Assembly: GCA_050015375.1 (NCBI GenBank)
Contig: JBEKBN010000008.1
Coordinates: 1 to 40,787 of the forward strand
From: Minisyncoccia bacterium
Lineage (GTDB): Bacteria; Patescibacteriota; Minisyncoccia; 2-02-FULL-40-12; IGHO2-01-FULL-4-A
DNA: 40,787 bases
Direction of reading: 5' to 3'
In this document: positions 6,943 through 30,767 of the stretch, one piece after another
Layout: each line of letters starts with the position of its first letter
Numbering within the stretch: position 1 is the first letter of the stretch
Notes under the pieces: model-generated
What the model was told of the DNA's origin: nothing
Seen by the model: only the letters and a program-made list of their open reading frames with translations
Database searches by the model: none
Translations under genes and position numbers: made by a program

Positions 6943-6948
6943 CGGGTT

Positions 6949-7350
6949 CTAAACCTTCGGGTAAATGGTATCCATTATTTGTTTCACGATCTTGTCCAAG
7001 TCGTCGCTTTTCCTGATATGAGCGACGGCGCCGATCTCTTTGGCAAATTTATTGTCAACCCAGGACGCGTCTTCGTCGGCCTCGCCGAAACTGGTCAAAA
7101 AGATAACGGTCATGTCTTTTAATTCGGGGTCAGCTTTCATCCTGACCAAGGTCTCAATTCCCGACATACCCGGCATCTTAACGTCAAGAAGTATCACATG
7201 AGGGCGATAGATTCTGGCTTTATCCATACCCGTCTGGCCGTCGGCCGCCGCGGCGACCTCAAAACCGGAGGCCTCGAGCTTGGCCTTGAATATTTCCCTG
7301 AAATCATTGTCGTCGTCAATTATTAAAATTTTCGGTTTTTCGTCGGGCAT
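6949..7350 (-). CDS. Single-domain response regulator (CheY-like receiver)
   Basis: IIDDD acidic pocket, LLDVKMPGMSG phosphoacceptor, FLTS, conserved Lys; no output domain. Confidence 0.95.
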   Translation of the reverse strand: MPDEKPKILIIDDDNDFREIFKAKLEASGFEVAAAADGQTGMDKARIYRPHVILLDVKMPGMSGIETLVRMKADPELKDMTVIFLTSFGEADEDASWVDNKFAKEIGAVAHIRKSDDLDKIVKQIMDTIYPKV

Positions 7351-8739: not shown

Positions 8740-8915
8740 TTAGTACCTCCTATCCCAGAACAACATCTAATCCTTCGGTTATCAATTTACCAGCAGAATG
8801 GCTGTTTTGCGATACTTCTTAGAACTTGAACAGGGATCTTCTATTAAACAATTCGACTTAACTTTTTTTGCTGTTTCTGAATTCAGAAATAAAAAAGGAC
8901 ACAAATTATGTGTCC

Positions 8916-10040
8916 TCAAAGACTTAAAATGGCCCACAGAACTCGCTTATCCATATTTGATAGGCTAGTGAACTCTCCTCGTCTAAGTTTTTTTGAAATT
9001 TTAATAAGTTCTTGTTGGTTACACCCATGCCATATCTCAACTGGCGTGATGGCTTCAACCGGTTTTTTTAATACACCATCCGGTATGATTATTGAATGCT
9101 CAATGAGATACAACAATCTGGACGGTAAAGAAACTTCCTTACTCCTATTTCCGAGAACCAGACCCAAAAAATATCTGATCACATTTGGGCGGTAATCTGA
9201 TAGGATGTTCCCAGTCGAGACGATTTCCTTTCCAGCGAAGTCGATATTTACATACGGCAGAGAAACTATAAACCGAGGTATCTTGATGCCCGCAAGCTGC
9301 GACGCTATAGTCGACAGAACCGCTTGCTTTAAAGTTTTATGTCCGGTACAGACTGTATCTACTGAAAAGCCATTTTTCCATAAAGCAGCCAAATAGAACA
9401 TCCAGCAAAAATCAACATCTAAAATAAAATCTTTGCTGAAACCTCTAGTTTTAAAACCAGCGCCAAATTTGCGACTAATAAGGATGGATTTACCGCGGAA
9501 GAAATTAAATTGTTCGCTAAACTCACATTCGGCATATCGTGGTATTACTTGCGGTAATTTCATATCGATGGGCAAACAAAGCAAAAGAACCTGTTCTGTA
9601 CTATTTTCTGCATGTTCGCTACAGGCCCTACAAGTTATCTTTCCGTTGGTTATCTCATAAATTCTGTCAGATTTCAGAGCGGTAAAATTATCCGGTTCAT
9701 CTAGAACTTCCGTTTTGCCGCAACCGCACCTCCAGATGCCACGAGGCTCTTCTTTAATCCAACCGTCACTTAACCCCTGATATAATACGGAAGAAACGAA
9801 TGTTTTATTTGATTCGTTATCATCCTGCCAAATCTGACCCCTCAATCCTAGAAAATAGGCCGAGGATCCGAACTCTTCAATGGCAATCTGGTCAGCTTTA
9901 CAACCTAGACAGTTTAAAGCCAATATCGTTTCCTGATTACACATTTTGCCCAACAGATCGACCATAAGCGGAATACTGTAATAACCTAGCATAGCATTTT
10001 TCCGTGGCGATAAAGGTAAAGATGTGATTGCGGAACGCAT
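8916..10040 (-). CDS. Degenerate class I aminoacyl-tRNA synthetase-like protein (MetRS-like catalytic core)
   Basis: ITSLPLSPRKNAMLGY at the HIGH position; Cys pairs WRCGCG and CRAC like a zinc knuckle; EIVSTGNI..YRPNVIRYFL at the KMSKS..GNV..YG.D..RYFL position. The signatures are degenerate. Confidence 0.5.
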   Translation of the reverse strand: MRSAITSLPLSPRKNAMLGYYSIPLMVDLLGKMCNQETILALNCLGCKADQIAIEEFGSSAYFLGLRGQIWQDDNESNKTFVSSVLYQGLSDGWIKEEPRGIWRCGCGKTEVLDEPDNFTALKSDRIYEITNGKITCRACSEHAENSTEQVLLLCLPIDMKLPQVIPRYAECEFSEQFNFFRGKSILISRKFGAGFKTRGFSKDFILDVDFCWMFYLAALWKNGFSVDTVCTGHKTLKQAVLSTIASQLAGIKIPRFIVSLPYVNIDFAGKEIVSTGNILSDYRPNVIRYFLGLVLGNRSKEVSLPSRLLYLIEHSIIIPDGVLKKPVEAITPVEIWHGCNQQELIKISKKLRRGEFTSLSNMDKRVLWAILSL

Positions 10041-10089
10041 AATGCCACCCCTTGATAGTGAGTTGTTAATGGACTGAGTTGCCCATATC

Positions 10090-11490
10090 TTAAATCATAT
10101 TCTTGATATCGTCAAGCAGGATACCGTCTATCTTTGAAAAGGAGATGTGGGCACATTTTTCTTTTAAATGATAGAAGGCGCCAACGGATAAGCAGAAATC
10201 CAGCAAAGATTTCGGAGAAACATCCTCGTCTTGCTTACCAGCGAAAATATGGATTTTTTTACCGTTTTTCTTCTCTACATCATTAATGGGATTCATCAAT
10301 TGGCCCGTGGCTAAAAAATGCCAATTTTTGTTTTCAAATCTGTATGCTCCTGTAAATGTTGATTGAAGGAAGTTTCCAAGAGAGCGAACACTGGGAACAC
10401 CCACAAAATCAATTACCGGAGACAAAGCAATAACTTTTTTCACTTCAGACTCGTTAGCCAAAGACAAAGCAACGGCTCCTCCAAAACTAGTTCCAATTAA
10501 AACTATTTGCTCGGTTTTAAAGTCAATTTTGTTTATTTCGATGCCGTTAATTAGAGCTAAGCTCAAACTTTTTATGTCCTTGATCGGAGATTCTTTTAAG
10601 AACTCCCCGCCACTTTCCCAAGTACCCCTATATCGCGGGAAGAAAACGGCATAATCAGTAAACAAAAGTTCGTTCATGAGCTCACGTTGATACGGAATTG
10701 ATGGCAAGCCATCACATAAAACGATTGCTCCCCGTATTTTTCCTTTTGGCAGAAGGTATTCAACAAACATATCATTATATTTCCACCAAAAAGGTTTTTG
10801 GGGTACAAGAGGCCGTTCTTTAGCCAAAGTTAAAACCAAGGAGTATATATTTTCATATATTGGTAAATATTTTGTTATATCATTATCTCTTCCCGTTAAC
10901 ATTAGGTAATCATTATTTGTTAATGTTTCAGGGTGGTGTTTTTTAAATCGATTAATCACGTCATCTTTCGAGTAGACACCATTAAAAAAAAGAACATCCT
11001 GCATTGCAAGAATTATTTTCTTTTTGTGAAAATCATTGCTTTTGTCCTTAGCTCCGACTTGATATCCCAAAAAAAGCTGCCTCGCTCTAAAAACATAATA
11101 TTGAATTTTAGCAACCACATCCCGTCGGACAAAGCGAGCGTTTGGGGCGGATGAGCAAAAAGGATTCACCCCATATAATAAACTTGCATTTTCTAGCACT
11201 TTAGAGATAAAACAGCCGTGGCTATCAAGCGATAATAAGTTAGGATTATCTATCTCATTCTCGTAAACAATCTGCAGGTCAATATAGGCCGCACCACTAA
11301 AAGTATTTTTAATTATCTTTGCGATCGACAAATCAGATAGAATATCCACCTTGTTTTTCAATATCAAGATCACGTCATAATCGTTGAACGTTTCAGTGGT
11401 TATCGAAGAGCCGTATTGCAAAATACCCAGCAGATTACCGCCATATTTGTCACGAGAATAATTTACTAACCGTTCCAATGCCTGATCCAT
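10090..11490 (-). CDS. Fusion of a Pol-beta-type nucleotidyltransferase and an alpha/beta hydrolase
   Basis: N-terminal YGSS..NDYDV and IDLQ; C-terminal PRYRGTWES, GTSFGG nucleophile elbow, GKQDEDV Asp and AH His. Confidence 0.75.
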   Translation of the reverse strand: MDQALERLVNYSRDKYGGNLLGILQYGSSITTETFNDYDVILILKNKVDILSDLSIAKIIKNTFSGAAYIDLQIVYENEIDNPNLLSLDSHGCFISKVLENASLLYGVNPFCSSAPNARFVRRDVVAKIQYYVFRARQLFLGYQVGAKDKSNDFHKKKIILAMQDVLFFNGVYSKDDVINRFKKHHPETLTNNDYLMLTGRDNDITKYLPIYENIYSLVLTLAKERPLVPQKPFWWKYNDMFVEYLLPKGKIRGAIVLCDGLPSIPYQRELMNELLFTDYAVFFPRYRGTWESGGEFLKESPIKDIKSLSLALINGIEINKIDFKTEQIVLIGTSFGGAVALSLANESEVKKVIALSPVIDFVGVPSVRSLGNFLQSTFTGAYRFENKNWHFLATGQLMNPINDVEKKNGKKIHIFAGKQDEDVSPKSLLDFCLSVGAFYHLKEKCAHISFSKIDGILLDDIKNMI

Positions 11491-11551
11491 TGTAGAATCC
11501 TAGACGAACAATAAAAAAGAATCAACTATTTCGAAACAAACAAGTAATTCG

Positions 11552-13180
11552 CTATAAACTTCTGGGCAGTTTGATGCAAAATTTACTGCCTTTGCCGGTG
11601 CCTTCGGATTCGGCCCAGATGTCGCCATGGTTGGCGAGGATGATTTGCTTGGCGATGAAAAGGCCCAGGCCGGTGCCTTCGATTTTGCTGGCGGTGGCCG
11701 AGTCGCGCTGGTATTGCTCGAATAATTTTGGTAATAGTTCGAGGGCGATGCCATGGCCGGTGTCGGTGACGGAAATCAATATTTGGTTGTATTGAAACTC
11801 GCCGATCTCGACTTTTATCCAGCCGGTGTCGGTATACTTGATGGCGTTCTCGACGAGGTTCTGGATTGATTGCCTGACTTTTTGAACATCGACATTGGCC
11901 ATCAGAATTTTCTCCGGTTTGGTGAACTCAAACTGGAGTTTCTTGTTTTCGGCCAGCATCCGGAACTCCCCCACCACATCCGCCACCATGTCGCCGATGT
12001 TGGCTTCCTCAAATTTATATTCCATCACGCCTTCCTCGATCTTCCGCAAGTCCATGATGTTGTTGACCAAGGCGATCATCCGGTCGGCGGAATCCTTAAT
12101 CTTCACCGCCGTGTCTTTAATTTTCTCCGAAACCGGCCCGTATGTGCCGTCGTAAATGAGCGTGGCGTAACCCTTGACCACATTCATCGGCGCCTTGACC
12201 TGATGAGACGCGAACGACAAGAACTGCGATTTCAACTTATCCAAGTCCTTCAATTTTTCATTGGCTTCCTCTAAACTTTTCGTCAGTTTTTCTAATCGTT
12301 CCCTCTGCTCGACTTCTTTCAAAACACTGCGAATAAGAAGAATCCCGAACGAAAGAACCAGCAAAAAGATTCCCGACCTCAAAATTATTGTCGTGATATC
12401 GCTGGATAAGATAACATCAATCAAAGAGACAACTGCCAAAACAAAAGCCAGAATTTCGGTAGTGATAATCTTAACATTGAGAAGGTGGTGTTTAAAAATG
12501 GCATAAGCAGTAAAAACAACGAATGGAAAAGTAAATACTGCACCTAAAGAAATATATCTGGCATCATTAAAAAAGGCCGGCAGAATAAAATTAAAAATAA
12601 TTATTAGAGCAAACATCAAAACAGCGCCCAATGATATATATTTAAGTTGTGTCCTCTCAATTTCTCGACTTTTTGTAAATCTTTTTATGAGAAAAAAGAA
12701 AGAGCCGAGGACCAATCCAACCGCTACCAAACCAAAAATAGCTATACCCGGACCATTCTCAATTTTTAAAATCATTCCACCTGATGAAACCTCAGCGACC
12801 CTTTTAAATACTAGAGGAGTTAAAGTTAAAATGGCAGCAAAAAGAGTAATTGGGAAAAGGACATATTTATACTTTTTATTGAAGGTTGCTTGTTTATTTG
12901 GAAAAACGTAGAAAAACTGAAAAATGAAAAAAGCCTGCCAAACCGCAAGAAAAATAACTAAGCGTTGCAACCAAAAAGCGACCTCGGTCGTTTTGATGTT
13001 ATAAGTGAAATAATTAAATACGCCCCAAATAATACTGATCAGGGAAAAAAATAGGAAAGTTTTGTTTGTAATGCTTTTTCTGTCGTTATAATAAACGATA
13101 AAACCCAAAACAGCTATGCCCGCCGCGGCAATTCCTACAGATAGGAGATCTAGATTAATAAATTCGTTTACCATAATCAC
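11552..13180 (-). CDS. Sensor histidine kinase with a multi-TM (7TM-type) membrane sensor
   Basis: About 9 hydrophobic segments; H-box FASHQVKAP; N-box NLVENAIKY; DTGHGI; GTGLGL. Confidence 0.95.
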   Translation of the reverse strand: MIMVNEFINLDLLSVGIAAAGIAVLGFIVYYNDRKSITNKTFLFFSLISIIWGVFNYFTYNIKTTEVAFWLQRLVIFLAVWQAFFIFQFFYVFPNKQATFNKKYKYVLFPITLFAAILTLTPLVFKRVAEVSSGGMILKIENGPGIAIFGLVAVGLVLGSFFFLIKRFTKSREIERTQLKYISLGAVLMFALIIIFNFILPAFFNDARYISLGAVFTFPFVVFTAYAIFKHHLLNVKIITTEILAFVLAVVSLIDVILSSDITTIILRSGIFLLVLSFGILLIRSVLKEVEQRERLEKLTKSLEEANEKLKDLDKLKSQFLSFASHQVKAPMNVVKGYATLIYDGTYGPVSEKIKDTAVKIKDSADRMIALVNNIMDLRKIEEGVMEYKFEEANIGDMVADVVGEFRMLAENKKLQFEFTKPEKILMANVDVQKVRQSIQNLVENAIKYTDTGWIKVEIGEFQYNQILISVTDTGHGIALELLPKLFEQYQRDSATASKIEGTGLGLFIAKQIILANHGDIWAESEGTGKGSKFCIKLPRSL

Positions 13181-13185
13181 CCCGC

Positions 13186-14262
13186 TTATTTATATAATAC
13201 ATTAGGTGGACGTTTTGACGAATGGGAACTAGGCTGATCCGCATAGCCTATCCTAAAATGTATTGCTATATTTTCAGAATCTACTGAAAATAATTTTCGA
13301 AATTCGTTATAATTTTTGTCTATTATAATTTCATGTTTTTGGCAAAAAGTTCCGGATCCTTCAGTTAAAATACGCTGGGCAGCAAATAATAAAGCCGTAA
13401 CCGGTTGTAAGCTCAATCTATTTTTAGTAGCCGTGAGCCAAACTCGTTGAAAAATACGACCCGCGTTTATGAAATTCTCATCACTGTGCCCATCCATCAA
13501 GATAATCCCCAAAACTGCGCCGGTAGAGTACAGTTTACTGTCTTCGCTAACAATTAATTTTGGCAGACCGAGAACCTTGAAAAATTTCATTAAAGGCCAA
13601 AAACTGGCCAATCGAAAGGCCAATCTTTGAGGGGGACTAAATTCCATAGTTTTCACATAAAGACCTGATTTTTTTAACAGCTCATCCTTTTCAGTCCATA
13701 TGATGTCATGAAATAAAAGATGGTGTAAATGCTCGTCTTCTAAAATAACTTGTTCTATACTTGCAGCGGCTTTACCTATTTGCTTTTTTGAATTATCGTT
13801 GTCTGTTAAACGTATTTCGTATTTGTTACCGAGGTTCATTACGGAAGGAATTGATATAAGTTCGTTGTAAATATCTTTTTCAAGTTTAGAAGAACGATAT
13901 TTTTTTCTATTTGTACATCTTGAAAAAATAAACTCGAAAAGAGAATCTTTCTGTGAAATTGTCTTTTCCAGATTTAGCGATGCGATATGATCAAAAAGAC
14001 CACTTTTGGGAAATAACTTTAATTTTACCGCATAACCATAATTTGAAGATGCAATCAAAATATTTTCAATCAAACAACCATGTGCAATATAGGAACCTCT
14101 TTGGCGATAATTAAGAACGGGATTGTCTTTTTCCGGAAGATTAAATATATCTATTTGATTATTCTCAACCTCAAATCTCCAGGGTTGTGAATTATCTCCT
14201 GATGGCGCAAAAATGCCGGCTTCTATTATTTTAATTATGTCATTATTCACCATTGATACCAA
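13186..14262 (-). CDS. Nitroreductase-family FMN oxidoreductase (Acg/TyzC-like)
   Basis: APSGDNSQPWRF, RCTNRKKY, AGRIFQRVWLTAT, FRIGYA. Confidence 0.88.
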   Translation of the reverse strand: MVSMVNNDIIKIIEAGIFAPSGDNSQPWRFEVENNQIDIFNLPEKDNPVLNYRQRGSYIAHGCLIENILIASSNYGYAVKLKLFPKSGLFDHIASLNLEKTISQKDSLFEFIFSRCTNRKKYRSSKLEKDIYNELISIPSVMNLGNKYEIRLTDNDNSKKQIGKAAASIEQVILEDEHLHHLLFHDIIWTEKDELLKKSGLYVKTMEFSPPQRLAFRLASFWPLMKFFKVLGLPKLIVSEDSKLYSTGAVLGIILMDGHSDENFINAGRIFQRVWLTATKNRLSLQPVTALLFAAQRILTEGSGTFCQKHEIIIDKNYNEFRKLFSVDSENIAIHFRIGYADQPSSHSSKRPPNVLYK

Positions 14263-15406
14263 TTTTTCTTAAAAATTCGCCAGTTCTTTTTTTTCGAAAG
14301 GTGACATTTTTCTTGCTGTGCCAGTCTGATTCCAAAATAGAATCCAAACTAACATCATAAACACCCGATTTAATATTGTTTGTCTTTAAGATTACTTTCC
14401 TGGCCAGATAAGCCAATACTGATCCACAAAGATTAGCTGCGGTACCAAGTTGAGGCCAGGAATATAAAGTTTTCCCGACCTCCATTACAGATTTCTGCAT
14501 GCGAAGGACCGAACGATCAGCACCAACCGTTCTTGCAACAACACTGACCATTTCCCCGTGACCGAGTTTCTTAACCTGTTCAGCGGTCATATTACCCATG
14601 AGACCATTAAATGGTTTTAAATTTTTATCAGTATCGTACCTTTCAATATGAGCAATAACGCCGTCGCCATTATCAGCGGCTGCGATAAGAGGAATCTTGT
14701 ATTTTTTTAAAATTTCTCTTGCCTTGAATTTATAATAGGGGTTATCCATTTCTTCAATAAGAACATCAACCCTGGGCTCACCCAAAATTATTGATTCAAT
14801 ATTTTGTTCAGTAACTCCTTCGGGGTAAATGGATATATTACTATAGGGATTAATTTCATATATTTGTCTTGCCACGGCCCTAACTTTAGAAAGACCAATA
14901 TTCTGAAAACCAACTCGGATCCTATTAGTGTTTGAGCCTGAAATAGTATCTGGATCGGCTAGCCTTAAATTTTTTCCTCCACCCGTAAGGGCAGCTGTTA
15001 TAGCCGCATGGCTACCGACGCTTAAACCCAAAATACCAATAGTTGAGTTGTAAAATATGCCTTGTTCTTCTTTGGTGATCAAATTACAATTTCGACCGGT
15101 GCGAAGTTCTTGATGCATGGCCTCCGGCAAGTAGTGCACGAGTTGGTTATGCCACGGAAAATAAAACCAACTTCCCGAGTCATCGGAATTGCCTTTACCA
15201 AAATGTTCTTGTCGAAATTCGGTTAAATGTTTCTTATAATTATTATCAAAACAGTACCTTGGGTTTTTTATCAAAAAAAGCTCATCAAGCATTTCCAAAT
15301 ATTGGTCAATAATAGCCGTTGGCTTACTTGATTTAATAATTTCTTCAAGTTGTCCCCTTTTTACTAAAACCGGTTTCCAGGAATCCCGGTCAATTATTTC
15401 CTTCAT
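14243..15406 (-). CDS. ThiF/E1-like adenylyltransferase (Rv1355c/TyzB/OxzB-like)
   Basis: RNCNLITKEEQ, GILGLSVG, LADPDTISGSNTNR, INPY, WPQLG. Confidence 0.9.
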   Translation of the reverse strand: MKEIIDRDSWKPVLVKRGQLEEIIKSSKPTAIIDQYLEMLDELFLIKNPRYCFDNNYKKHLTEFRQEHFGKGNSDDSGSWFYFPWHNQLVHYLPEAMHQELRTGRNCNLITKEEQGIFYNSTIGILGLSVGSHAAITAALTGGGKNLRLADPDTISGSNTNRIRVGFQNIGLSKVRAVARQIYEINPYSNISIYPEGVTEQNIESIILGEPRVDVLIEEMDNPYYKFKAREILKKYKIPLIAAADNGDGVIAHIERYDTDKNLKPFNGLMGNMTAEQVKKLGHGEMVSVVARTVGADRSVLRMQKSVMEVGKTLYSWPQLGTAANLCGSVLAYLARKVILKTNNIKSGVYDVSLDSILESDWHSKKNVTFRKKRTGEFLRKIGINGE

Positions 15407-15410
15407 AGAT

Positions 15411-16931
15411 TTATTTCTTTATCCATTTTTGCTTTCCCTTATTACTAAAATACTCTGGGTGTTCATAATCCCAAAAAACAATATGGGGTTTAATTCCAAC
15501 TGGATTTTCCGAATAAGTTTTTCGATATTCTGAATTTTCCGCAATCAAATGCTTTGTTATTTCATGTTCAATTATTTTCTCAAGTTTTTTCGACCCTATC
15601 CTATGAAGTTTAAGCTCAATATTAACTTCAAAAAGTTGATTCGCATTTTGATCACCTTTTACCATCATGGTAAATTTACCGGTTATGTCTTCATGAAATT
15701 TACTTTCAAGCAAAACCCTACGTATGGTTTCGGGATAAATTTGAAACCCATATAAACTTACAGAAAAGTCGCTTCGCTCATAAACATAAACAAAAGGCAA
15801 ACGCCAAATAGTGTCTTCAATTCCCGCTTTTTTTGCCTCTGTTCTAATATCAATTCCAGACTTTTTGATCTTACTCATCATATCTTCGAAACCTATAACC
15901 CCCCCGTTATCTTTTAGGTCATATCGCACAAGAGGAAGCCCAGAAAAAGCTGAACATAACAATTGTCCCCGAACTTCTTCAAAAAAGAACAATTCCGGGT
16001 CGTATTGGCACAGAGTCGGGAGCTTTTTTGTATTTGGGAATATTTGTTTATAAAGAAAACGACTTTGTTTAACCGCAAGCCGTCTGATTAAGATAGCCAA
16101 AGGCGTCTCATATGCGAGCGTGCCCTGATCGACAGTTCCGTAGTGGTTTAATGTGTCTCGGTAGATATTTTTTAATCCGGTTTTTTCAGCAATATAATCT
16201 CGAAATTCCTCGCAAAATCCCTCTGCTGAAAAGATAAATTTCAGGTTATATTTTTTCCAATCGATACCCTGGGCCAATCCTTCATCAATCGCGTCCTTCA
16301 GAAATGGTCCATAGCAACCAATAATAATTTGATCATATTTTTCACCGAATTTTTTCACGGAATTAATTATCTCTTTTTTGTCAACACTAGTGGTAATGAT
16401 ACTCAAAGGATAATTACCCCTCTCAGCAATTATCTTGATGGCTTCATAGGTAAAAAGTCCACCTATCCATATACCCATCGGGAATGCATCAATATAGAGG
16501 GTTGATTTTTTTTGAATATCAAAATTAGTTATAAGATATAATTCTGCCGTACCAGCATATTGAAGATCCTGTACGTTTTCCCGGGGGAAATAAAATGGCT
16601 CACCTGTCGAACCAGAGGTTGCCGATATAACCCACCTTTTCTGTTTAAATTTTCCGTCCCAGCATAGCTCTTCAAGCGGATAATTTCGGAGATAATCAGT
16701 TTTGTCTATTGTAGGAATTTTACGAAAATCATTGAACTTTTTAACACCTTTAGAATTGAAATTTTGTTTATCGAGATAACTTTTATACGCCGGTACCCGC
16801 TTCGCCATTTTGTGGAAAAGTTTGAGAGCCCTCCTTTCTCCGGCTTTGACCCACTTGCTTTCGGGCGCGGTTTTCAGGGTCTTAAGAAGCAAAGCTGGAT
16901 TATCATATTTTTTGGGTAGCAACAAAAACAT
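15411..16931 (-). CDS. Phenylacetate-CoA ligase (PaaK)-like adenylate-forming enzyme
   Basis: RVPAYK, ATSGSTGEP P-loop, HYGTVD, PLVRYDLKD, ERSD, IYPETI. Confidence 0.88.
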   Translation of the reverse strand: MFLLLPKKYDNPALLLKTLKTAPESKWVKAGERRALKLFHKMAKRVPAYKSYLDKQNFNSKGVKKFNDFRKIPTIDKTDYLRNYPLEELCWDGKFKQKRWVISATSGSTGEPFYFPRENVQDLQYAGTAELYLITNFDIQKKSTLYIDAFPMGIWIGGLFTYEAIKIIAERGNYPLSIITTSVDKKEIINSVKKFGEKYDQIIIGCYGPFLKDAIDEGLAQGIDWKKYNLKFIFSAEGFCEEFRDYIAEKTGLKNIYRDTLNHYGTVDQGTLAYETPLAILIRRLAVKQSRFLYKQIFPNTKKLPTLCQYDPELFFFEEVRGQLLCSAFSGLPLVRYDLKDNGGVIGFEDMMSKIKKSGIDIRTEAKKAGIEDTIWRLPFVYVYERSDFSVSLYGFQIYPETIRRVLLESKFHEDITGKFTMMVKGDQNANQLFEVNIELKLHRIGSKKLEKIIEHEITKHLIAENSEYRKTYSENPVGIKPHIVFWDYEHPEYFSNKGKQKWIKK

Positions 16932-16936
16932 AATTT

Positions 16937-18106
16937 TTATTTGAATTGATTAAAAATACTTCTAGCCATTTCATCAGCGACAATATTTGTCGGTTTATTC
17001 TGTCTTTCGCTGGTTTCCAGAATATTTTTCATGTTGTCTTTTATGCAATTCAAACGTTTGTTTATCCTCTGGCTGTCCATGTTGTCATTTTCGTATTCAT
17101 CGGCGACGCTGATAAGTCCGCCGGCATTTATAACATAGTCGGGGGCGTAGATTATTCCTATTTCATGTATTTTCCTTCCAATATCCAAATCAGCAAGTTG
17201 ATTATTCGCGCCACCGGCAATGATCGGTGAACGGATTTTTTTGATAGAGTTGTTGTTTAAGATGAGGCCGATGGCGCAGGGCGAAAAAACATCAACTTTC
17301 TGCTGGTGTATCAGCGAGGGACTAACCATTTTGACTTTCGGGTAAGATGCTTTTAAGGTCTTGATTTTTTCGGGGTAAATATCAGCGGCATATATGGTTT
17401 TAGCGAAAGGATACAGCGCTTTTATCAAAGCCGTGCCTATTTTCCCGACTCCCTGAACGGCGAAACTCCGTCCCGAGATGTCGCCTTTACCGAATGCTTT
17501 TTTCAGGCACTCATTTATTCCCAGCAATAATCCTTTGGCCGTGTATTCTGTCGGGTTGACCTTATTTCCAACGAAATACGGGCTGTATTCGCTCATAATC
17601 CTGACATCCTCTTGTTGTAGGCCGACATCCGTTCCCGTGACAAAACGGCCATTCAGGCAATTTATTTTCTCGGCGTATTTCTTAAGAATTTGGGGACGTT
17701 TGGCGTCAAAGCCGTTTTTTACGGCCGGACAAACAATGACTCCCTTCGCCCCGCCGTATTTCAAGTCGGCAAGAGCCGACTTGAAGGACATAAGCCGGGA
17801 TAATCTCAATGAATCCTCCAGCGCTTCGCGGCCATCCTCGTAATGCCACAATCTGGTCGCGCCAAAAGCCGGATTGAAATATCCCCCGCGATGGATGCTT
17901 ATGTAAGCATCGAGTCCAGTTTTCGAATCGGTCACGTTGGCGGCGAGATTATGGTCGTCAAATTCCGAAAATTTGCTTAACAATTCGGAATCCAGAACAT
18001 GAAACCCGTTTTTTTGAAAAAGCAGATCTTTATATTGCAAGCCAAAATGGCCATTCTTGATAGTTTGGCTTGGGGGAGTGATTTTAATCCCACTTATTTC
18101 GTCCAT
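16937..18106 (-). CDS. Glu/Leu/Phe/Val dehydrogenase (leucine/phenylalanine dehydrogenase-like)
   Basis: PAFGATR, MSFKSALA, GGAKGVI, TGTDVG, VQGVGKIG Rossmann motif, GGANNQL, YAPDYVINAGG. Confidence 0.93.
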   Translation of the reverse strand: MDEISGIKITPPSQTIKNGHFGLQYKDLLFQKNGFHVLDSELLSKFSEFDDHNLAANVTDSKTGLDAYISIHRGGYFNPAFGATRLWHYEDGREALEDSLRLSRLMSFKSALADLKYGGAKGVIVCPAVKNGFDAKRPQILKKYAEKINCLNGRFVTGTDVGLQQEDVRIMSEYSPYFVGNKVNPTEYTAKGLLLGINECLKKAFGKGDISGRSFAVQGVGKIGTALIKALYPFAKTIYAADIYPEKIKTLKASYPKVKMVSPSLIHQQKVDVFSPCAIGLILNNNSIKKIRSPIIAGGANNQLADLDIGRKIHEIGIIYAPDYVINAGGLISVADEYENDNMDSQRINKRLNCIKDNMKNILETSERQNKPTNIVADEMARSIFNQFK

Positions 18107-18202
18107 AATATCGCGCCGAGCATCCTAACGGATAAGGGGCCGAGATTCTATATTTTGAGGAACCAAATCATCGGACTGACAGGAGGAAATTATGAATATT
18201 GG

Positions 18203-18326
18203 TTAAGAAAACAAAAAAACGCTTCTATACTTTGATCAAGTTTTATCCCGATCCCTAGATCATTCCTTACAGTATGTGTATGAAATAAGTTAAGAAGCCG
18301 CAGCTATAACTGAAATATAACAACCT
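18203..18326 (-). promoter_or_regulatory. Conserved 5' leader, copy A (upstream of the dehydrogenase operon)
   Basis: Aligns with 21065-21183; the identical 20-mer AAGTTAAGAAGCCGCAGCTA is at 18287-18306. Confidence 0.75.
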
Positions 18327-18332
18327 GAATCA

Positions 18333-18362
18333 ATTATATCACATTTTTAAGTTAGATTACAA
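18333..18362 (-). promoter_or_regulatory. Sigma70 promoter with extended -10 for the dehydrogenase-to-kinase operon
   Basis: On the minus strand, TTGTAA-N18-TATAAT with TGnTATAAT. Confidence 0.7.
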
Positions 18363-18412
18363 ACGGTCGGCGGATATAGGAAAACGGCAGTTAAAACTAA
18401 AAATGATTAGTT

Positions 18413-18442
18413 AAAAAAACGGGGAAACTGATGTTTCCCCGT
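18413..18442 (-). terminator. Intrinsic terminator after the ABC transporter
   Basis: 10-bp stem ACGGGGAAAC/GTTTCCCCGT followed by a T-run on the minus strand. Confidence 0.85.
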
Positions 18443-18446
18443 AAAA

Positions 18447-20249
18447 TTAGATCGTAGTGATCTGGTTCTTAATCAAGGCCTGGTAACGCGGGCAGGTTTT
18501 GGCCAATTCCGAATGCTTTCCCTCGGCCACCAACTTTCCGTTATCGATGACAAATATCCGGTCAACCGAACGAATAGTCGAGAGACGGTGAGCTATGATG
18601 ATCGTTGTTCGGCCTACGGACGCTTTCTCGATTGCTTTCCGAATGAGCATCTCGTTTTCCGTGTCCAAGTTTGAGGTTGCTTCGTCAAAAACGAGAATTT
18701 GCGGTTCCTTGATAAGCGCTCTGGCGATGCCGACGCGTTGGCGTTCGCCGCCGGAAAGTTTTATCCCCTTCTCGCCGATGACGGTGTCAAAGCCATGCTC
18801 GAGCCGGTGGTAGAATTTATCAATGCAAGCCATTCGGGCAACCTCGTGCATTCTTTCTTCGCTGACAAGTTCTTTTTTTCCGTCCAACCCGAAAGTAATA
18901 TTATAGCCGAGCGTGTTATCGAACAAAGTGACATGCTGTTCGACAAGCCCGAGATTCTCGCGATATTTCTTGAGGTCGAGCTCTTTGAGGTCAATTCCGT
19001 CGATCAATATCCGGCCTTTTTGCGGGTCGTAGGCGCGGATAAGCAGGTTCACGATGGTAGATTTGCCGGCTCCAGACTCACCCACAAAAGCGACTTTTTC
19101 TCCAGGATTTATCTTGAAGCTGATTCCGGAAAGCGTCCGCCGTCTACTGGTCTTGATTGGTTCCGGTGGTTTTCCGTTATTGTTGTCCGACGATTGACGC
19201 GCGGGATACTCGAACGAAACATCGTTGAACACGATTTCGCCTCGGAAAGTTTTCGGAGAGATGGGATCTTCGGTTATCTTTATATCCGGCTCGATATCCA
19301 TCATGGCGAAAAATTCTCTTATTGAGGCATACTGGGACATCATCTGCCTTTGAAGATTGCCCAAATTATTCACGCGGCCCAGGGCGTTGGATGTCCAGGA
19401 TAGAAAGATGAACAAATAACCTATCGAGTAATAACCGCGAATAACCATGTAGGCGCCGACTATCATGACCAGAAAAGTCGTCAGGTCGATTACGATCGAT
19501 CTTGAATACATTGAGACAACATATTTTAACCAGAACCTCCGCCCAAAAGATATACTTTTATCCAGTTCCCTATCATAGTCACGCTTGATCTTGCTTTCCT
19601 GGGCGTTCACCTTTACCGCTTCAATGTTTCTGATGATTTCCGTATGCCTTTTGCTGTCATCATTTTGCATGTCTTCCATTTTCTTCAATTGCGGTCGGAT
19701 TTTGGCGTTTGAAACCAAAGTGATTGAAACGAAAGTCGTGACTCCGACGAAAACGATAAGGCCGAGAACCCAGTTTAAGTACATCAAAGCGCCAATGATC
19801 AGAATGACCTGGAAAAATATCGGCATGATGTTGTAAAGCAAGGAGTAGGCGAATTGGCGCAAAGCACTTTCGCCTTTGTTGATGATACTTTGCTTGATTG
19901 CCGAATTTTGGCTGTGATGCTGGCCGATCGAAAAAGAAAACAATTTTTCAAGCGTTTCGCTGGTTATCGCTTTCGCAACGGAATAATCCAAGTGGTTAAC
20001 TTCAAATCTCTCACGAAATGCGCCGATGATAGTGGACACGGTTTCTATAAGCAGAACAAATAAAGCCAGACGCAGGATCAAACTGAAATTTTGTTTTACC
20101 AAAGCGTTGATGGCTAAGCCATAAAGATATGGCGACGCCAAAGCAAAAACTTGCTGGACAATGACGAATACAAAAGCCATAACAACCGCCCATTTGAACG
20201 GCTTGTAGATAGCGAGCAACCTTTTGACGAAACCCTTTGTATTTGGCAT
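18447..20249 (-). CDS. ABC exporter, fused permease and ATPase (MsbA/MdlB-like)
   Basis: N-terminal TM domain; GESGAGKS; LSGGERQR; VFDEATSNLD; IAHRLST. Confidence 0.95.
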   Translation of the reverse strand: MPNTKGFVKRLLAIYKPFKWAVVMAFVFVIVQQVFALASPYLYGLAINALVKQNFSLILRLALFVLLIETVSTIIGAFRERFEVNHLDYSVAKAITSETLEKLFSFSIGQHHSQNSAIKQSIINKGESALRQFAYSLLYNIMPIFFQVILIIGALMYLNWVLGLIVFVGVTTFVSITLVSNAKIRPQLKKMEDMQNDDSKRHTEIIRNIEAVKVNAQESKIKRDYDRELDKSISFGRRFWLKYVVSMYSRSIVIDLTTFLVMIVGAYMVIRGYYSIGYLFIFLSWTSNALGRVNNLGNLQRQMMSQYASIREFFAMMDIEPDIKITEDPISPKTFRGEIVFNDVSFEYPARQSSDNNNGKPPEPIKTSRRRTLSGISFKINPGEKVAFVGESGAGKSTIVNLLIRAYDPQKGRILIDGIDLKELDLKKYRENLGLVEQHVTLFDNTLGYNITFGLDGKKELVSEERMHEVARMACIDKFYHRLEHGFDTVIGEKGIKLSGGERQRVGIARALIKEPQILVFDEATSNLDTENEMLIRKAIEKASVGRTTIIIAHRLSTIRSVDRIFVIDNGKLVAEGKHSELAKTCPRYQALIKNQITTI

Positions 20250-20291
20250 GTTTTACTCCTTTTTTTGAGTGATTATTGCGATTTAACGGCC

Positions 20292-21017
20292 TTAGAATAT
20301 TTCCTCATAAAGGGTAGTAATTTTGTCGGTGAAGATGTCGGTGGGGGTGAGAGAGGGATTATTGCGACACTCTTCGGAAAGAGTAAAAATATCACCGATG
20401 TTGATAGAGATCTTTGGCCGGTGGAATGTGATTATCCGTTTGAAAACATTATAATTTCCGTACAAACTAACAGGCAAAATCGGCGTGTCTGGAAATGACT
20501 CTGCCAAAATTCCGGCGCCAGGTTTAAGCGGTGCGACACCTTTTTCAAGAAATCGTTTACCTTCCGGAAAAAGCACGACTGTGCCGCCTCGAGAAAGGAT
20601 TTTTTTGGGAATTTCCAGAGATTTTTCCATGCCCGAACCATAGTATGACGGGTAAGACCCGAACAAAACCTTGATGAAAAGATAGCTCCAAAAATACTCA
20701 AAAAAATCATCTTTGGCCATGAACCTCAACGGATATTTGTTTGAGAAAAAAGGCAAAGCGATGCCAAGCAGAAGCGGATCAAAAAAACCTTTATGATTGG
20801 CGATGATTAGAAATCCGCCTCTGGGAAATTTCTTGGGCAGACGACCTTTGATTTTGATCGTAGTGAAAAGATAGAGAAAAATATAAGAAAAGATAAGTAA
20901 AATCTTCTGGGTGAACTTGAAGAAATATGGGCCGATGGCGGACTTGAATTCAAAAGACCCGCGTTGTTCAGGCGACGAGTTGGTTTGGGAAACTTTGACT
21001 CCGTTTGTTTCATTCAT
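20292..21017 (-). CDS. PlsC-like lysophospholipid acyltransferase
   Basis: NHKGFFD (HX4D), FMAK, FPEGKR, PILPV. Confidence 0.9.
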   Translation of the reverse strand: MNETNGVKVSQTNSSPEQRGSFEFKSAIGPYFFKFTQKILLIFSYIFLYLFTTIKIKGRLPKKFPRGGFLIIANHKGFFDPLLLGIALPFFSNKYPLRFMAKDDFFEYFWSYLFIKVLFGSYPSYYGSGMEKSLEIPKKILSRGGTVVLFPEGKRFLEKGVAPLKPGAGILAESFPDTPILPVSLYGNYNVFKRIITFHRPKISINIGDIFTLSEECRNNPSLTPTDIFTDKITTLYEEIF

Positions 21018-21064
21018 AATGCCGGGCGGCGCTTAACAAATAGAGACGAAAGGGGTCAAGATTT

Positions 21065-21183
21065 TTAAGAAGCAAAAAGACGGTCCTATTTTCGGATGAA
21101 GCCAGATCTCGATCCCTTCCATCTCTTGGGTTTGAGAACAAAAAAGTTAAGAAGCCGCAGCTAGGTCTAAAATATATCTGCCT
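21065..21183 (-). promoter_or_regulatory. Conserved 5' leader, copy B (upstream of the acyltransferase-ABC operon)
   Basis: Identical 20-mer at 21144-21163 plus colinear blocks shared with copy A. Confidence 0.75.
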
Positions 21184-21190
21184 GTGACAA

Positions 21191-21219
21191 AGGATAGCAT
21201 ACTAGACAGAACCCGTCAA
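21191..21219 (-). promoter_or_regulatory. Sigma70 promoter for the acyltransferase-ABC operon
   Basis: On the minus strand, TTGACG-N17-TATCCT with a TG extension. Confidence 0.7.
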
Positions 21220-21290
21220 TTCTGTTCTCGTAATTAAATAACCCCTCGGGAGAAATGATTCTCGAGGGGTTTGCCGTTGATAAACGGCGG

Positions 21291-22181
21291 TTAGCGCAAG
21301 GGAATGATCGGAATGCCGGCAAAGACGAATCCGCCATTCGCCGTGAAGAAGCATTTGAGCGCCGTGACTGAAACCGCTTGGTCGGCGGTGACTTCAACAT
21401 GGCCGTCAGTAGTCAGGTTGCCTTTGGCATCAGGTTTGAGACCGGGGAAAGTCGAGCTGAAGAACAAAGCCACTTGTTGATTGGCCTTCAGCGCGACGAG
21501 GACGCTTGCCAACGGCGTTGCCGGATCCCCGCTCGCCCGGTAGGTGTCGAACAAATTCAGAATCAACCCGACTGTCGTGCTGTTGGGGTTGAAAACCGCG
21601 AAGCCGGTGTCGATTTTTGAAGTGATGATGGTCGGCACCGAGAATTTGCTTATCGGCGGTTTGATATCTACGCCGGCCGATGACAATTCATTGCCCTGCC
21701 AATCCAACAGCCGATACGTGACGGCAATGCCGATGTCGTCGTTGTAATCGTAGCCGGTCGTGTCCCAGGTGAATGGAGATTGAAACAAAATAACTCCGCT
21801 TTGCTGGGCGCTTGACCCGCAAGATGTGCAAGCCATAAGTGTTCCCCCGCCGGAAGTTTTCGCTTTCGGCGAAAGCAATTGGCTTTTACTGACATTGGTC
21901 TCTCTGGTTCCGTTTGACCAGAGAATGTCGACGACCATCGGAGAGCCGTCGCTTTTTTGAAAGCTGATCGGGACGGGTTTACCCGCAGCAAAAGAATTCG
22001 CCATTGCCTGAAAGTCGCTCATGTACTGATTACTGCCGACTTTTCCGGGCGTCCCTACCCAGCCGACGGCGAATTGAGGTGCGACCAGTTGGCGGGTGTT
22101 GGTGGTCTGAGCGCTGACATCAGCGGCGGCCGTAAACATTACGGCGAAAAGCAAAAGATAATTCGTGACAAGTTTTCTCAT
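21291..22181 (-). CDS. Secreted hypothetical protein (beta-rich)
   Basis: Sec signal peptide (MRKLV..VSA|Q); AGGAG Shine-Dalgarno; no catalytic motif recognised. Confidence 0.75.
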   Translation of the reverse strand: MRKLVTNYLLLFAVMFTAAADVSAQTTNTRQLVAPQFAVGWVGTPGKVGSNQYMSDFQAMANSFAAGKPVPISFQKSDGSPMVVDILWSNGTRETNVSKSQLLSPKAKTSGGGTLMACTSCGSSAQQSGVILFQSPFTWDTTGYDYNDDIGIAVTYRLLDWQGNELSSAGVDIKPPISKFSVPTIITSKIDTGFAVFNPNSTTVGLILNLFDTYRASGDPATPLASVLVALKANQQVALFFSSTFPGLKPDAKGNLTTDGHVEVTADQAVSVTALKCFFTANGGFVFAGIPIIPLR

Positions 22182-28793: not shown

Positions 28794-29450
28794 ATGGACG
28801 AATTCAGTCCTCTGCCCAGCGAAAATACCCCACCGCTGATTCCGGTCGAACCGAAGAAGAAATTCAATCTCAAGATTTGGATTCCGATTATTGTGGTTGT
28901 TTTGCTGATTGTCGGCTATGTCGCAATTGCAGAAAACCACGGCTGGTGGCCGATGAATCAGTTAATTCCAACAGCGACACCCATCTATTCTCCACCTTGT
29001 TGCAAAACAAACCCGACCCCATTTCCGACTACTGACAATTGGAAAACTTATACCAATAACCAATATGGGTTTGACCTGAAATATCCGGCGGAATGGAATC
29101 AAAGCGGTGATAAATTAGTTGGTGAAAACGGTGAGAGTATGTTGCTTATTTCGGTGATAAAAACTACCTCCAGTAATATTCAAGATTGGTTCGATAACGA
29201 ATTCAAAAGCCGGAATAGTAATGAAAAACCAACATATTCGAGTATCGTCATAGCCGGTTTTCCAGCTTTGCATTATGAAGATCCGACAGTTATTTTTAAA
29301 AGCGGAACGGGTGTCGGCAATTGCATATCGGATAATGTTTTTATTAAAAATGGTAATCTTTATGATCTCCAGGAAGGAGCCACAGCATGCAGTTATTATC
29401 CCGAAGTTGTTTTTTCCCAAATCCTCTCCACATTCAAATTCACAAAATAG
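28794..29450 (+). CDS. Membrane-anchored PsbP-like surface protein, array member
   Basis: PVEPKK-TM-GWWP; NWKTYTNNQYGFDLKYP; QILSTFKFTK. Start revised from 28758, which lies inside the palindrome. Confidence 0.75.
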   Translation: MDEFSPLPSENTPPLIPVEPKKKFNLKIWIPIIVVVLLIVGYVAIAENHGWWPMNQLIPTATPIYSPPCCKTNPTPFPTTDNWKTYTNNQYGFDLKYPAEWNQSGDKLVGENGESMLLISVIKTTSSNIQDWFDNEFKSRNSNEKPTYSSIVIAGFPALHYEDPTVIFKSGTGVGNCISDNVFIKNGNLYDLQEGATACSYYPEVVFSQILSTFKFTK

Positions 29451-30767
29451 CCCAAACCACCCAAGATGTTTCCCAAGATTTCTTGTGAAACATTGAAAAA
29501 TGGCTTGTTGAGCAATATGGATCAACCAAATCCAATGCAAGAACAAAATAATCCAATGCAGAACCAAAATCCGTCAATGTCAGTTCCGCCGATGCCGCCG
29601 GTAGAACCCAAAAAGGGTCTAAAAAAATTCTTACCCTCCCTCCTCATCATTGTCATCCTAGCCGCCATATATGTTTGCTTTGCCGCGTTTTTCGGCTGGT
29701 GGCCGATGAGCCGGAATCAGGTATCAAGTATCAAGAATCAAGGGAATCCAACCCTCTCCCCGACCCAAGACCTGACCACGAATTGGAAAACCTATTCGAA
29801 TTCGACTTACGGATTTGAATTAAAATATCCGAGCGATTGGAATGATTTGAAAATTGATGATGAAAATCTTGATTTGAATGTTACTCCCGGTGGCGATGAT
29901 TCGCTCACATTATATCTCAAAACATCCGACAAAAATTATGAAAATAATTGGAAATACACAGATAATTTTGGATATGCTCCCATGTTTACGATCGATATTA
30001 ATACACCGGTGTCTTGGAAAAATAACTGGGAAAATCCAAATCGTCCCGCTACAGGCAAACCAACTATTTTAACTCAAAACGATAAATTTATTATTGCTTA
30101 CACAAAATCCCAAAATTGCCCATCTGATTTATCTGTAGCATGTGGCAAGACAGACCAAATCCTCTCCACCTTCAAGTTCACAAGCCAAATCGATACTTCA
30201 AGCTGGAAAACCTACACCAACAGCCAGTATGGGTTTGAATTTAAATATCCATCAAATTACTCCGAAGTTCTACCGGCTCCAGGAGGCGGAGTTAATCCTG
30301 AAGGATACACGTCCTTCATTGCCGGTTCGAAATCAACTACATTCCATCTGAATTTCACCAAGTTTTCAGGTTCTGTCAGCGAATTGGTGGCCCTAAATAA
30401 ACAGCAAAAAGCTTTTTCTGTTCAATTTTCCTCACCGCAAACCATCACCGAGCAGAAAACAATTAACAATCTTGATATAACTTGGTACGACAACAATCAG
30501 GTGTATTTCGTTTCTAATGGTTTTGGTTTTATGCTTTTTTCCGATGACAAAAATGTATCTATGATTGACCAAATCCTCTCCACCTTCAAATTCACAAAAT
30601 AATCCAAGCCACCCAAGATGTTTTCCAAGATTTCTTGTGAAACATTGAAAAATGGCTTGTTGAGCGATATGGATCAACCAAATCCAATGCAAGAACAAAA
30701 TAATCCAATGCAGAACCAAAATCCGTCAATGTCTGTTCCGCCGATGCCGCCGGTCGAACCCAAAAAG
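29417..30767 (+). repeat. Near-identical ~199-bp direct repeat (29417-29615 and 30569-30767)
   Basis: Covers a gene 3' end, the intergenic spacer and the next gene's 5' end; only a few substitutions; offset 1152 bp. Confidence 0.95.
29517..30602 (+). CDS. Membrane-anchored surface protein with two PsbP-like domains
   Basis: Two WKTY.N..YGFE.KYP ... DQILSTFKFT units; likely start MDQPNP. Confidence 0.8.
   Translation: MDQPNPMQEQNNPMQNQNPSMSVPPMPPVEPKKGLKKFLPSLLIIVILAAIYVCFAAFFGWWPMSRNQVSSIKNQGNPTLSPTQDLTTNWKTYSNSTYGFELKYPSDWNDLKIDDENLDLNVTPGGDDSLTLYLKTSDKNYENNWKYTDNFGYAPMFTIDINTPVSWKNNWENPNRPATGKPTILTQNDKFIIAYTKSQNCPSDLSVACGKTDQILSTFKFTSQIDTSSWKTYTNSQYGFEFKYPSNYSEVLPAPGGGVNPEGYTSFIAGSKSTTFHLNFTKFSGSVSELVALNKQQKAFSVQFSSPQTITEQKTINNLDITWYDNNQVYFVSNGFGFMLFSDDKNVSMIDQILSTFKFTK

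Follow-up and report, generated by a model that had tools for sequence, protein, structure and literature searches.

A two-copy leader-like element ahead of neighbouring operons in a Minisyncoccia bacterium

Two neighbouring operons on the minus strand of a Minisyncoccia bacterium contig (JBEKBN010000008.1) are preceded by similar non-coding segments. This raises the question of whether the segments are copies of a shared regulatory leader or the remains of a local duplication. The window analyzed was the whole stretch of 40,787 nucleotides. An earlier note on this DNA had proposed a regulatory RNA (riboswitch, attenuator or antitermination site), which would place an acyltransferase/ABC exporter operon and its neighbour in the same regulon.

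Two copies of one segment and the genes behind them

The minus-strand segments 18195-18326 (copy A) and 21055-21183 (copy B) were colinear homologs by MAFFT and by global alignment, essentially where the earlier note had placed them; the coordinates given here result from setting the 3′ ends a few bases beyond its own. Identical residues occupied 91 of the 135 columns of the global alignment (67% overall), and the score of the alignment was attained by no shuffle out of 2000. BLAST returned 82.2% identity over 45 nt. A covariance model (R1) scored the copies at 156.9 bits (A) and 146.3 bits (B), and the leader occurred only twice in the genome of this peat bacterium, which is very small (835 kb). 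The 20-nt block claimed to be fully identical was confirmed, with no mismatch between 18287-18306 and 21144-21163 (minus strand), and two matches to this 20-mer were seen in none of 100 shuffles of the window. The 60-nt flanks of the two copies showed no similarity, either upstream (P = 0.33) or downstream (P = 0.93). The leader duplication is real and private to one lineage. The copies are direct repeats, 2857 bp apart, and flank exactly the accessory acyltransferase/ABC pair. They may, in our tentative reading, be paralogous copies of one 5′ leader module that heads two separate transcription units with different promoters.

All the genes discussed here lie on the minus strand. Copy A precedes an operon of about 9.4 kb, whose first gene encodes a ScyB-like amino-acid dehydrogenase of 389 aa (16937-18106), matching NF035922 with 250.6 bits, under the cut-off of 600. 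The remainder of the operon (8895-16931, with a terminator at 8917-8895) encodes a PaaK-like adenylating enzyme, a ThiF-like protein, a nitroreductase-like protein, a 7TM histidine kinase, an alpha/beta hydrolase and a 374-aa protein. This operon adjoins receiver-domain pilus genes. Copy B precedes a PlsC-type acyltransferase of 241 aa (20292-21017; PF01553, the sole gene of this family in the genome) and an MsbA-like ABC exporter of 600 aa (18447-20249, by profile/domain match). The genes behind the two leaders are unrelated to each other. No homolog of the acyltransferase (E ≤ 1e-8) was present in 104 other genomes of the order, and therefore a lineage-specific gene pair carries the copy of its neighbour's leader. 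Neither an acyltransferase nor an ABC exporter was found within about 8 kb of any of 13 related clusters, and the suggestion in the earlier note that the two genes may provide missing steps of the pathway (acyl transfer and export) thus finds no support by comparison. Pattern searches of public contigs gave 231 matches for relatives of the dehydrogenase (metagenome contigs) and 88 for relatives of the acyltransferase (genome contigs), none of which was confirmed.

The predicted promoters, identified as consensus matches only, are TTGTAA-18-TATAAT with TG (18333-18362, minus strand) for copy A and TTGACG-17-TATCCT with TG (21191-21219, minus strand) for copy B. By these positions, the homology starts 6-7 nt past each -10, as read from the sequence. 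The earlier note had described a good sigma70 -10 at this distance before each copy; the distance was found in both, but the word good holds for A only, the -10 of B matching four of six consensus positions. Over the scan as a whole, promoter-like matches were not enriched (8 found, compared with 5.4 ± 2.1 in shuffles). The hexamers and spacers differ between A and B, and the transcribed part alone is common to both. Upstream of promoter A, a terminator hairpin with a T-run follows the ABC gene (18419-18442, minus strand; fold z-score -4.81, 0 of 200 shuffles). Upstream of promoter B, a terminator-like hairpin with a T-rich tail follows a gene for a 296-aa protein (21240-21271, minus strand), and the stretch 21225-21290 had a fold z-score of -5.36, equalled by none of 200 shuffles. 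In agreement with the earlier note, each copy of the element opens at the predicted start of its own, separate transcription unit, and the element is predicted to be transcribed. The untranslated leader would extend to the first ATG over about 220 nt (A) and 165 nt (B).

Conserved blocks, folding and known leader types

The blocks listed in the earlier note were all seen in both alignments. Their order is the same in the two copies, namely AGG..TATATTT.AG, the 20-mer, a variable spacer, AGGGATCG(G/A)GAT, CTT(G/C)ATC, ATAG(A/G)A, a T-run and TTCTTAA. The 20-nt block holds a 3-bp AGC/GCU stem, a UGCG loop and the first CTTCTTAAC box, and its mini-hairpin appeared in the minimum-energy folds of both copies. 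When the identity vector was permuted, an identical run of 20 arose in 0.8% of cases (P = 0.008); a short gene-conversion tract could be another source of this run. The purine block reads GGGATCGGGAT in copy A (18245-18255) and GGGATCGAGAT in copy B (21106-21116), both by alignment on the minus strand. The CTTCTTAAC box recurs downstream with at most one mismatch in both leaders (shuffles, P = 0.011 and P = 0.014), as TTTCTTAAC in A (18202-18210, minus strand, 87 nt after the first box) and as CTTCTTAAA in B (21064-21072, minus strand, 82 nt after it). Of the 135 sites in the genome with at most one mismatch to this box, four fall in the roughly 260 nt of the two leaders. A third genomic GCTTCTTAAC lies at C17:4252, in a long ORF-free stretch that is otherwise unlike the leader, and pairs of similar boxes at C3:10966 and C2:20919 share no further block.

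The structure of the leader RNA gave little sign of a switch. The fold z-scores were -1.56 and +1.04 for the leaders and 0.01 and -1.44 for the whole untranslated regions, no better than shuffles, and the minimum-energy folds differed between A and B. Of the two minimum-energy folds, only that of A contained the GAUCGRG/CUUSAUC hairpin claimed for both copies; in B, the stem has a C.C mismatch as read from the sequence. RNAalifold drew a shared structure that pairs the purine block with the T-run, with 24 pairs of which five were changed on both sides, but this count is circular because the structure was derived from the same two sequences. The earlier note could match the element to no riboswitch, and the Rfam search agreed: the whole window gave no match at gathering thresholds, and the eight sub-threshold matches obtained at E ≤ 10 in the region 17900-21500 did not include any that overlapped a leader on the minus strand. 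A scan of 17900-21500 found no intrinsic terminator within 18107-18326 or 21018-21183, and the folds placed no stable hairpin adjacent to the T-run of the leaders. The attenuator proposal is thus left with no intrinsic-terminator-like site inside either leader, and the riboswitch proposal with no thermodynamic signal and two copies that fold differently; on these two sequences, the results do not support the riboswitch reading. A small ORF or leader peptide was rejected, since six-frame translation gave no shared ORF: where residues are common to both copies, the frames are of unequal length or have no start codon. Comparison by eye with the rules for ANTAR-type dual hexaloops, TRAP/HutP-type triplet repeats and a T-box led to these being set aside.

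The resemblance to boxA was also followed up. In rRNA leaders, a boxB hairpin lies directly upstream of boxA, and a small hairpin is likewise found directly upstream of the box in the present leaders. Genes for NusB and NusG are present in the genome. The boxA consensus is GYTCTTTAANA (PMC5725501), and GCTTCTTAACT agrees with it at seven of ten specified positions, failing at C4 (where it has T), T5 and A11. In E. coli, a C4T/T6C double change led to loss of SuhB association (PMC5725501). The likeness to boxA/Nus sites in mRNA leaders (PMC5725501) consists of a short pyrimidine-rich ...CTT.AAC box and the presence of Nus genes, whereas the three failed positions and the lack of a detected Rho gene set the leader apart. 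Eight of 12 rRNA leaders from this family carry the motif G[GAC]AC[AT]TTNA[ACT]A behind a hairpin; the motif was derived post hoc from extracts of which two of the 12 are possibly out of register. It reads GGACATTAAAA in the present genome, and its conserved part was matched by neither leader within two changes. A Rho_RNA_bind domain was not found in the genome, which is rated 98.9% complete, and terminator-like sites inside the long operon were not enriched (12, compared with 9.3 ± 3.3 expected). The boxA resemblance noted earlier thus holds at the level of seven positions but misses the critical C4 of the consensus (PMC5725501) and differs from the family's own rRNA-leader motif; together with the undetected Rho domain, this speaks against the proposed boxA antitermination site.

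Other leader elements or dedicated antiterminators of biosynthetic operons include RfaH with ops, LoaP with a leader hairpin, and the EAR RNA, a family that has an Rfam entry. The present leaders resemble these systems in being promoter-proximal, in standing before a long accessory operon and in possibly being common to one regulon. Unlike EAR, they match no Rfam family. RfaH/LoaP-type specialized antitermination was rejected because only one match to the NusG family (PF02357) was found in the genome (C9:25356-25667), so that a specialized paralog is lacking. A CsrA-bound leader with GGA sites was also rejected, PF02599 having no match in the genome.

Relatives, strain variation and other repeats

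Homologs from related genomes had been called for in the earlier note, and none were found in 104 order and 400 class genomes. The covariance model R1 gave six weak matches in the 104 other genomes of the order (18-24.6 bits), all without the 20-mer and at chance level. In 25 other genomes of the family, the 20-mer with up to three mismatches gave no match, compared with six for the reversed-pattern control. In 400 other genomes of the class, 11 genomes had one match each, all with exactly three mismatches; the reversed pattern matched in about 60 genomes (hand count), so the 20-mer was not above control. The exact 20-mer had no match in two public collections (genome contigs and metagenome contigs). 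At the 13 related cluster loci, the best blastn-short match was 14 nt (E = 0.078), and the 20-mer was not found with up to five substitutions. Some related clusters are preceded by a conserved stretch of about 1.3 kb, for which Rfam gave nothing beyond a nearby tRNA. Peat runs X2-X9 contain parts of the locus, and no RNA run was listed among the nine runs found.

In a diverged strain (run X2), leader B is kept in front of the acyltransferase. Of the strain differences listed, 11 lay in leader B, with 24 further differences outside the listing; none of the 11 fell in the 20-mer (P = 0.14), one fell in the purine block at 21111, and seven clustered in a 16-nt spacer that is itself unlike between A and B. 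Conserved positions held six of the 11 listed, and the depletion was not significant (P = 0.19). In the same run, a joint from 18442 to 20311 would point to a relative that lacks the ABC gene, but with 27 letters on its short side and 81% identity it is too thin to rely on.

Pairs of similar upstream regions have been described as putative mobile promoters, which occur mostly in pairs, mostly lack an Rfam match and have a function that is open (Matus-Garcia, Nijveen and van Passel; PMC3575422). The present leaders are likewise a similar non-coding pair upstream of unrelated genes in one genome. They differ in that the hexamers and spacers of their promoters are not common, the transcribed part alone being shared, and in their similarity. 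Mobile promoters are defined by an identity of 80% or more across 50 nt or more, at -150 to -50 of the start codon of non-paralogous genes (PMC3575422); the BLAST match between the leaders, 82% over 45 nt, is just short of that length, and identity over the whole element is 67%. The genome also holds 37 families of palindromic intergenic repeats (MITE/REP-like; 130-240 nt, 2-25 loci each), and the leader resembles these as a short non-coding sequence in more than one copy. Representatives of the eight largest families folded into long hairpins with z-scores of -4.6 to -14.4. A repeat of this type was rejected, because the leader pair has only two copies and neither a long hairpin nor a strong fold.

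Rival readings and a possible shared factor

The main rival is that the pair is an evolutionary relic, now in decay, of a leader capture or local duplication that took place when the acyltransferase/ABC pair settled beside the older operon and left what is now generic untranslated sequence. We consider this somewhat unlikely, with arguments on both sides. The direct repeats bracket exactly the accessory genes, the overall identity is low, the element was not found outside the lineage in the family, order and class genomes and public contigs searched, and the listed strain differences fall about as often on conserved as on unconserved positions. Pairs of unrelated genes with similar upstream regions are also common in prokaryotes, where more than 4000 families have been reported (PMC3575422). 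However, an identical run of 20 nt is improbable under even decay, the flanks are at chance level and the core is not, both predicted start sites lie at the 5′ limit, and the box is repeated internally. An improbable alternative is a DNA-level element, either an operator downstream of the start that uses the two similar CTTCTTAA boxes, 82-87 bp apart, or a conserved plus-strand antisense promoter that interferes with sense transcription. On the plus strand, copy A reads TTAAGA-17-TATACT (18203-18231), and the homologous place in copy B was read as TTAAGA-16-TATTTT, in which case an antisense promoter would have the conserved TTCTTAA block as its -35 and the conserved ATAG block as its -10. But the match in copy B is under the scan threshold, such matches are frequent by chance, the blocks are non-palindromic, and the one OmpR-type DNA-binding regulator found in the genome is encoded on a different contig. 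Homology that starts exactly at a start site is also more natural for an RNA element.

Among RNA elements, a structured cis-acting RNA that senses a pathway metabolite (a riboswitch or protein-independent attenuator) appears quite unlikely. A long untranslated leader ahead of biosynthetic genes and the shared RNAalifold structure would suit it, but against it stand the circular count, the ordinary and dissimilar folds, the missing terminators and Rfam match, the unconserved parts proximal to the ribosome site, and a search of more than 500 genomes that gave no relatives. Loading of NusB/NusE at a boxA-type site, with processive antitermination as the outcome, is very improbable, the box fit, the hairpin and the Nus genes being set against the failed C4, the different rRNA-leader motif, the undetected Rho domain and the unenriched terminator-like sites. 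Because fold signal, Rfam match and internal terminator are all lacking, factor binding fits better than a switch.

Our best reading, still a tentative one, is a shared transcribed leader recognized by a putative trans-acting factor. It is favoured because the similarity is sharply bounded (no shuffle reached it, and the flanks are at chance), because its 5′ limit falls at both predicted start sites though the promoters are unrelated, and because a strong terminator stands ahead of each unit (fold z-scores -4.8 and -5.4). The uneven conservation, the recurrence of the box in both copies, and the retention of leader B in the run X2 strain, where the listed differences spare the 20-mer, point in the same direction, as does the finding that a lineage-specific gene pair has a copy of the leader of its neighbour. 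The reading is weakened because the start sites are predicted only and promoter-like matches are unenriched, because conserved positions show no significant depletion of strain differences, and because there are only two copies and one strain variant, with no homologs in the genomes and contigs searched. In such a mechanism, the module would act after initiation, as a recognition site in the nascent RNA for the putative factor. The parts recognized would be the 20-nt block, with its small C(UGCG)G hairpin and CUUCUUAAC box, the GGGAUCGRGAU block, and the second CUUCUUAA box 82-87 nt downstream. The accessory acyltransferase/ABC pair would thereby share its control with the dehydrogenase-to-kinase operon next to it. 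Both the binding of a factor to the leader and the co-regulation of the two operons are conditional on this reading; the leader pair is nevertheless a reasonable basis for proposing co-regulation, as the earlier note had done in placing both operons in one regulon.

A more specific version, which we regard as quite unlikely, is that the leader is a lineage-specific regulatory RNA, a docking site for a putative elongation or stability factor in an ultrasmall (Patescibacteria-sized) bacterium, and that it couples the acyltransferase/exporter pair to the conserved enzyme-plus-7TM-kinase operon. For now, the element matters as a candidate for mapping start sites and for tests with reporters, rather than as a new class of RNA. 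To our knowledge, gene regulation in ultrasmall, reduced-genome bacteria is almost unstudied. If the docking-site reading is true, the element would belong, as one node, to a small signalling-metabolite regulon of an organism that has very few regulators. A shared leader would in any case be a rare visible clue to the co-ordination of an accessory pair with a conserved enzyme-and-sensor operon.

Two units with a common leader

The source genome (834,902 bp in 23 contigs, completeness rating 98.9%, with the window as one contig) has a size that points to an ultrasmall, Patescibacteria-like organism. The locus was partly present in nine DNA runs, all peat or wetland metagenomes. On the minus strand, genes for a 721-aa and a 296-aa protein are followed by a terminator, promoter B and leader B (21055-21183), and then by a PlsC-type acyltransferase (241 aa), an MsbA-like ABC exporter (600 aa) and a further terminator. 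Promoter A and leader A (18195-18326) precede a long operon on the same strand, which ends in a terminator at 8917..8895. Its first gene codes for a ScyB-like amino-acid dehydrogenase, at 250.6 bits below the cut-off of 600, and after it come genes for a PaaK-like adenylating enzyme, a ThiF-like and a nitroreductase-like protein, a 7TM histidine kinase, an alpha/beta hydrolase and a 374-aa protein. Taken together, the ThiF-like and nitroreductase-like proteins resemble a split Rv1355c-family protein.

The two leaders were colinear, with identity in 91 of 135 alignment columns, and all shared blocks listed in the earlier note were seen in their alignments. The alignment score was equalled in 0/2000 shuffles, and the 60-nt flanks were at chance level (upstream P = 0.33, downstream P = 0.93). 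The 20-mer at 18287-18306 and 21144-21163 had no mismatch between the copies; two matches to it occurred in 0/100 window shuffles, and a 20-nt identical run was equalled in 0.8% of permutations. The duplicated leader is a real feature, with only two copies in the genome.

Promoter A (TTGTAA-18-TATAAT) and promoter B (TTGACG-17-TATCCT), both with a TG extension, were obtained from a consensus-match scan, and the region was not enriched in such matches (8 versus 5.4 ± 2.1). Sequence reading upheld the claim that the shared element starts just past both -10s, 6-7 nt downstream, which is the expected start site. Furthermore, well-supported terminator hairpins preceded both promoters (z-scores −4.81 and −5.36, 0/200 shuffles each). 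The picture is of separate units that share a leader and have unrelated promoters. Among known kinds, the nearest is the putative mobile promoter, a pair of similar upstream sequences before unrelated genes, with >4000 families reported, mostly of unknown function (PMC3575422). The leader pair fell just under the criterion of that study, with 82% over 45 nt, and differed in that the transcribed part, but not the promoter, was common to the copies.

Structured RNA and boxA

The element belonged to no known Rfam family, in line with the undescribed element of the earlier note, with 0 matches in the window at gathering thresholds. At E<=10 over 17900-21500, 8 matches below threshold appeared, and none covered a leader on the minus strand. 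Fold energies of the leaders (z-scores −1.56 and +1.04) were ordinary compared with shuffles, as were those of the whole untranslated regions (0.01 and −1.44). The proposed GAUCGRG/CUUSAUC hairpin was found in the best fold of leader A but not in that of leader B, where, by reading, a G-to-C difference leaves a C.C mismatch in the stem. RNAalifold gave 24 pairs, 5 of them changed on both sides, including a helix of the purine block and the T-run; this favourable count is circular because the structure was derived from the same two sequences. In addition, the start-codon-proximal parts of the untranslated regions were not conserved between the copies. A small ORF shared by the leaders was considered, and none exists. 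The riboswitch reading did not agree with the ordinary fold energies and differing shapes of the copies, nor the attenuator reading with the terminator scan, which gave 0 intrinsic-terminator-like sites within either leader. Accordingly, a structured switch or attenuator is improbable, even with the two-sided changes.

The suggested boxA likeness of GCTTCTTAACT was not borne out: it matched 7/10 specified positions of the published gamma-proteobacterial consensus, GYTCTTTAANA (PMC5725501), and had T at position 4. The same paper reports loss of SuhB association upon a C4T/T6C double change. Among 12 rRNA leaders from the family, two possibly out of register, 8 carried G[GAC]AC[AT]TTNA[ACT]A after a hairpin. 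The motif in the source genome was GGACATTAAAA, 241 nt upstream of the 16S gene, in a leader with a TTGACT-17-TAGAAT promoter and a long hairpin before it. The 16S gene itself (C1:7136-11270) gave three well-scoring pieces over ~4.1 kb and therefore has large insertions. Neither leader A nor B matched the conserved part of the motif with <=2 changes. The genome had one NusB and one NusG-family gene; a Rho RNA-binding domain and CsrA were undetected at its completeness rating. Moreover, terminator-like sites inside the long operon were not enriched (12 versus 9.3 ± 3.3). A boxA in the leaders is thus highly improbable. Only one OmpR-type DNA-binding regulator was found in the genome (C4:70998-71222).

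Related clusters and the sensor kinase

The source genome was the sole member of its genus among the genomes compared. Homologs of the PaaK-like gene were present in 13 of the 104 other genomes of the order, and all 13 shared the PaaK-like/ThiF-like/nitroreductase/7TM-kinase cluster (window 11552-16931 and loci L017-L028); only two of the 13 had the dehydrogenase. Within ~8 kb of the related clusters, there was no match to the acyltransferase, the exporter or six other window genes, and no leader-like sequence occurred at any of these loci. The covariance model of the leader pair (R1) scored 157 and 146 bits on its own copies and gave only 6 matches elsewhere in the order (18-24.6 bits, five other genomes); the 20-mer was absent from the three alignments shown. 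No leader relative turned up in searches of the family, a class sample and two public collections, and two protein-guided scans for relatives were also blank. None of eight papers found for Patescibacteria and riboswitches or cis-regulation was on such a leader, as judged from title and abstract opening.

The 7TM kinase was the best-conserved cluster member, with 43-55% identity where seen full length and 30-38% in two loci truncated by a contig end. The cluster, often adjoined by a further protein of ~526 aa, may form a signal-synthesis-plus-sensor module. The same strand carries, further downstream (5230-7350), genes for a stand-alone receiver protein of 133 aa and a PilB-type ATPase that has a receiver domain at its N terminus, then PilC and a pilin-like gene. 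These proteins are possible targets of the orphan kinase.

Origin and constraint of the leader pair

As direct repeats set 2857 bp apart, the two leaders bracket exactly the accessory acyltransferase/exporter pair. The acyltransferase was the one PF01553 gene in the genome and had a homolog in 0/104 other genomes of the order. The layout is consistent with local duplication or with capture of a leader as the pair arrived. As for other repeats, the genome held 153 dispersed loci of 90-320 nt in 37 families, mostly intergenic, which look MITE/REP-like because representatives of the 8 largest families form long hairpins (z-scores −4.6 to −14.4). One copy lies at 40579-40787 (92.8% match to C9:12874-13078). 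A 199-nt direct repeat (29417-29615 and 30569-30767, 96% identity) lies in a row of paralogous genes, one of which has a PsbP-like domain, and reaches from the end of a gene across the gap into the start of its neighbour. The genome's third GCTTCTTAAC lies in nearly 900 nt of ORF-free sequence (C17:3536-4421), adjoining a palindromic repeat at 4362-4524.

Constraint was assessed with a diverged strain in sequencing run X2, of which a 636-nt contig spans 21027-21257 with 19 differences. From the 13 listed, leader B had at least 11; these figures are lower bounds because 24 more differences lie beyond those listed. Among the 11, none fell in the 20-mer (P = 0.14), at least 7 lay in a 16-nt part of the spacer (P = 0.001), and at least 6 hit positions common to A and B (expected 7.8, P = 0.19). 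Third codon positions accounted for at least 13 of 18 differences listed in the acyltransferase gene. These data show a hypervariable spacer in leader B and no significant constraint elsewhere. At 20955-21027, the X2 strain replaces 71 nt over the acyltransferase start codon and first codons with 68 other letters, and keeps the leader upstream.

A decaying relic is doubtful, though it is the main rival to the reading preferred here. The CTTCTTAAC box (<=1 mismatch) occurred twice per leader, 87 nt apart in A and 82 in B (P = 0.011 and P = 0.014), with 135 such sites per 1.67 million positions scanned genome-wide. These boxes could serve a DNA-level operator, but the element starts where transcription is expected to, and an operator or antisense promoter is unlikely. 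Our tentative preference is for a transcribed leader recognised by a factor, which may place both units under common control.
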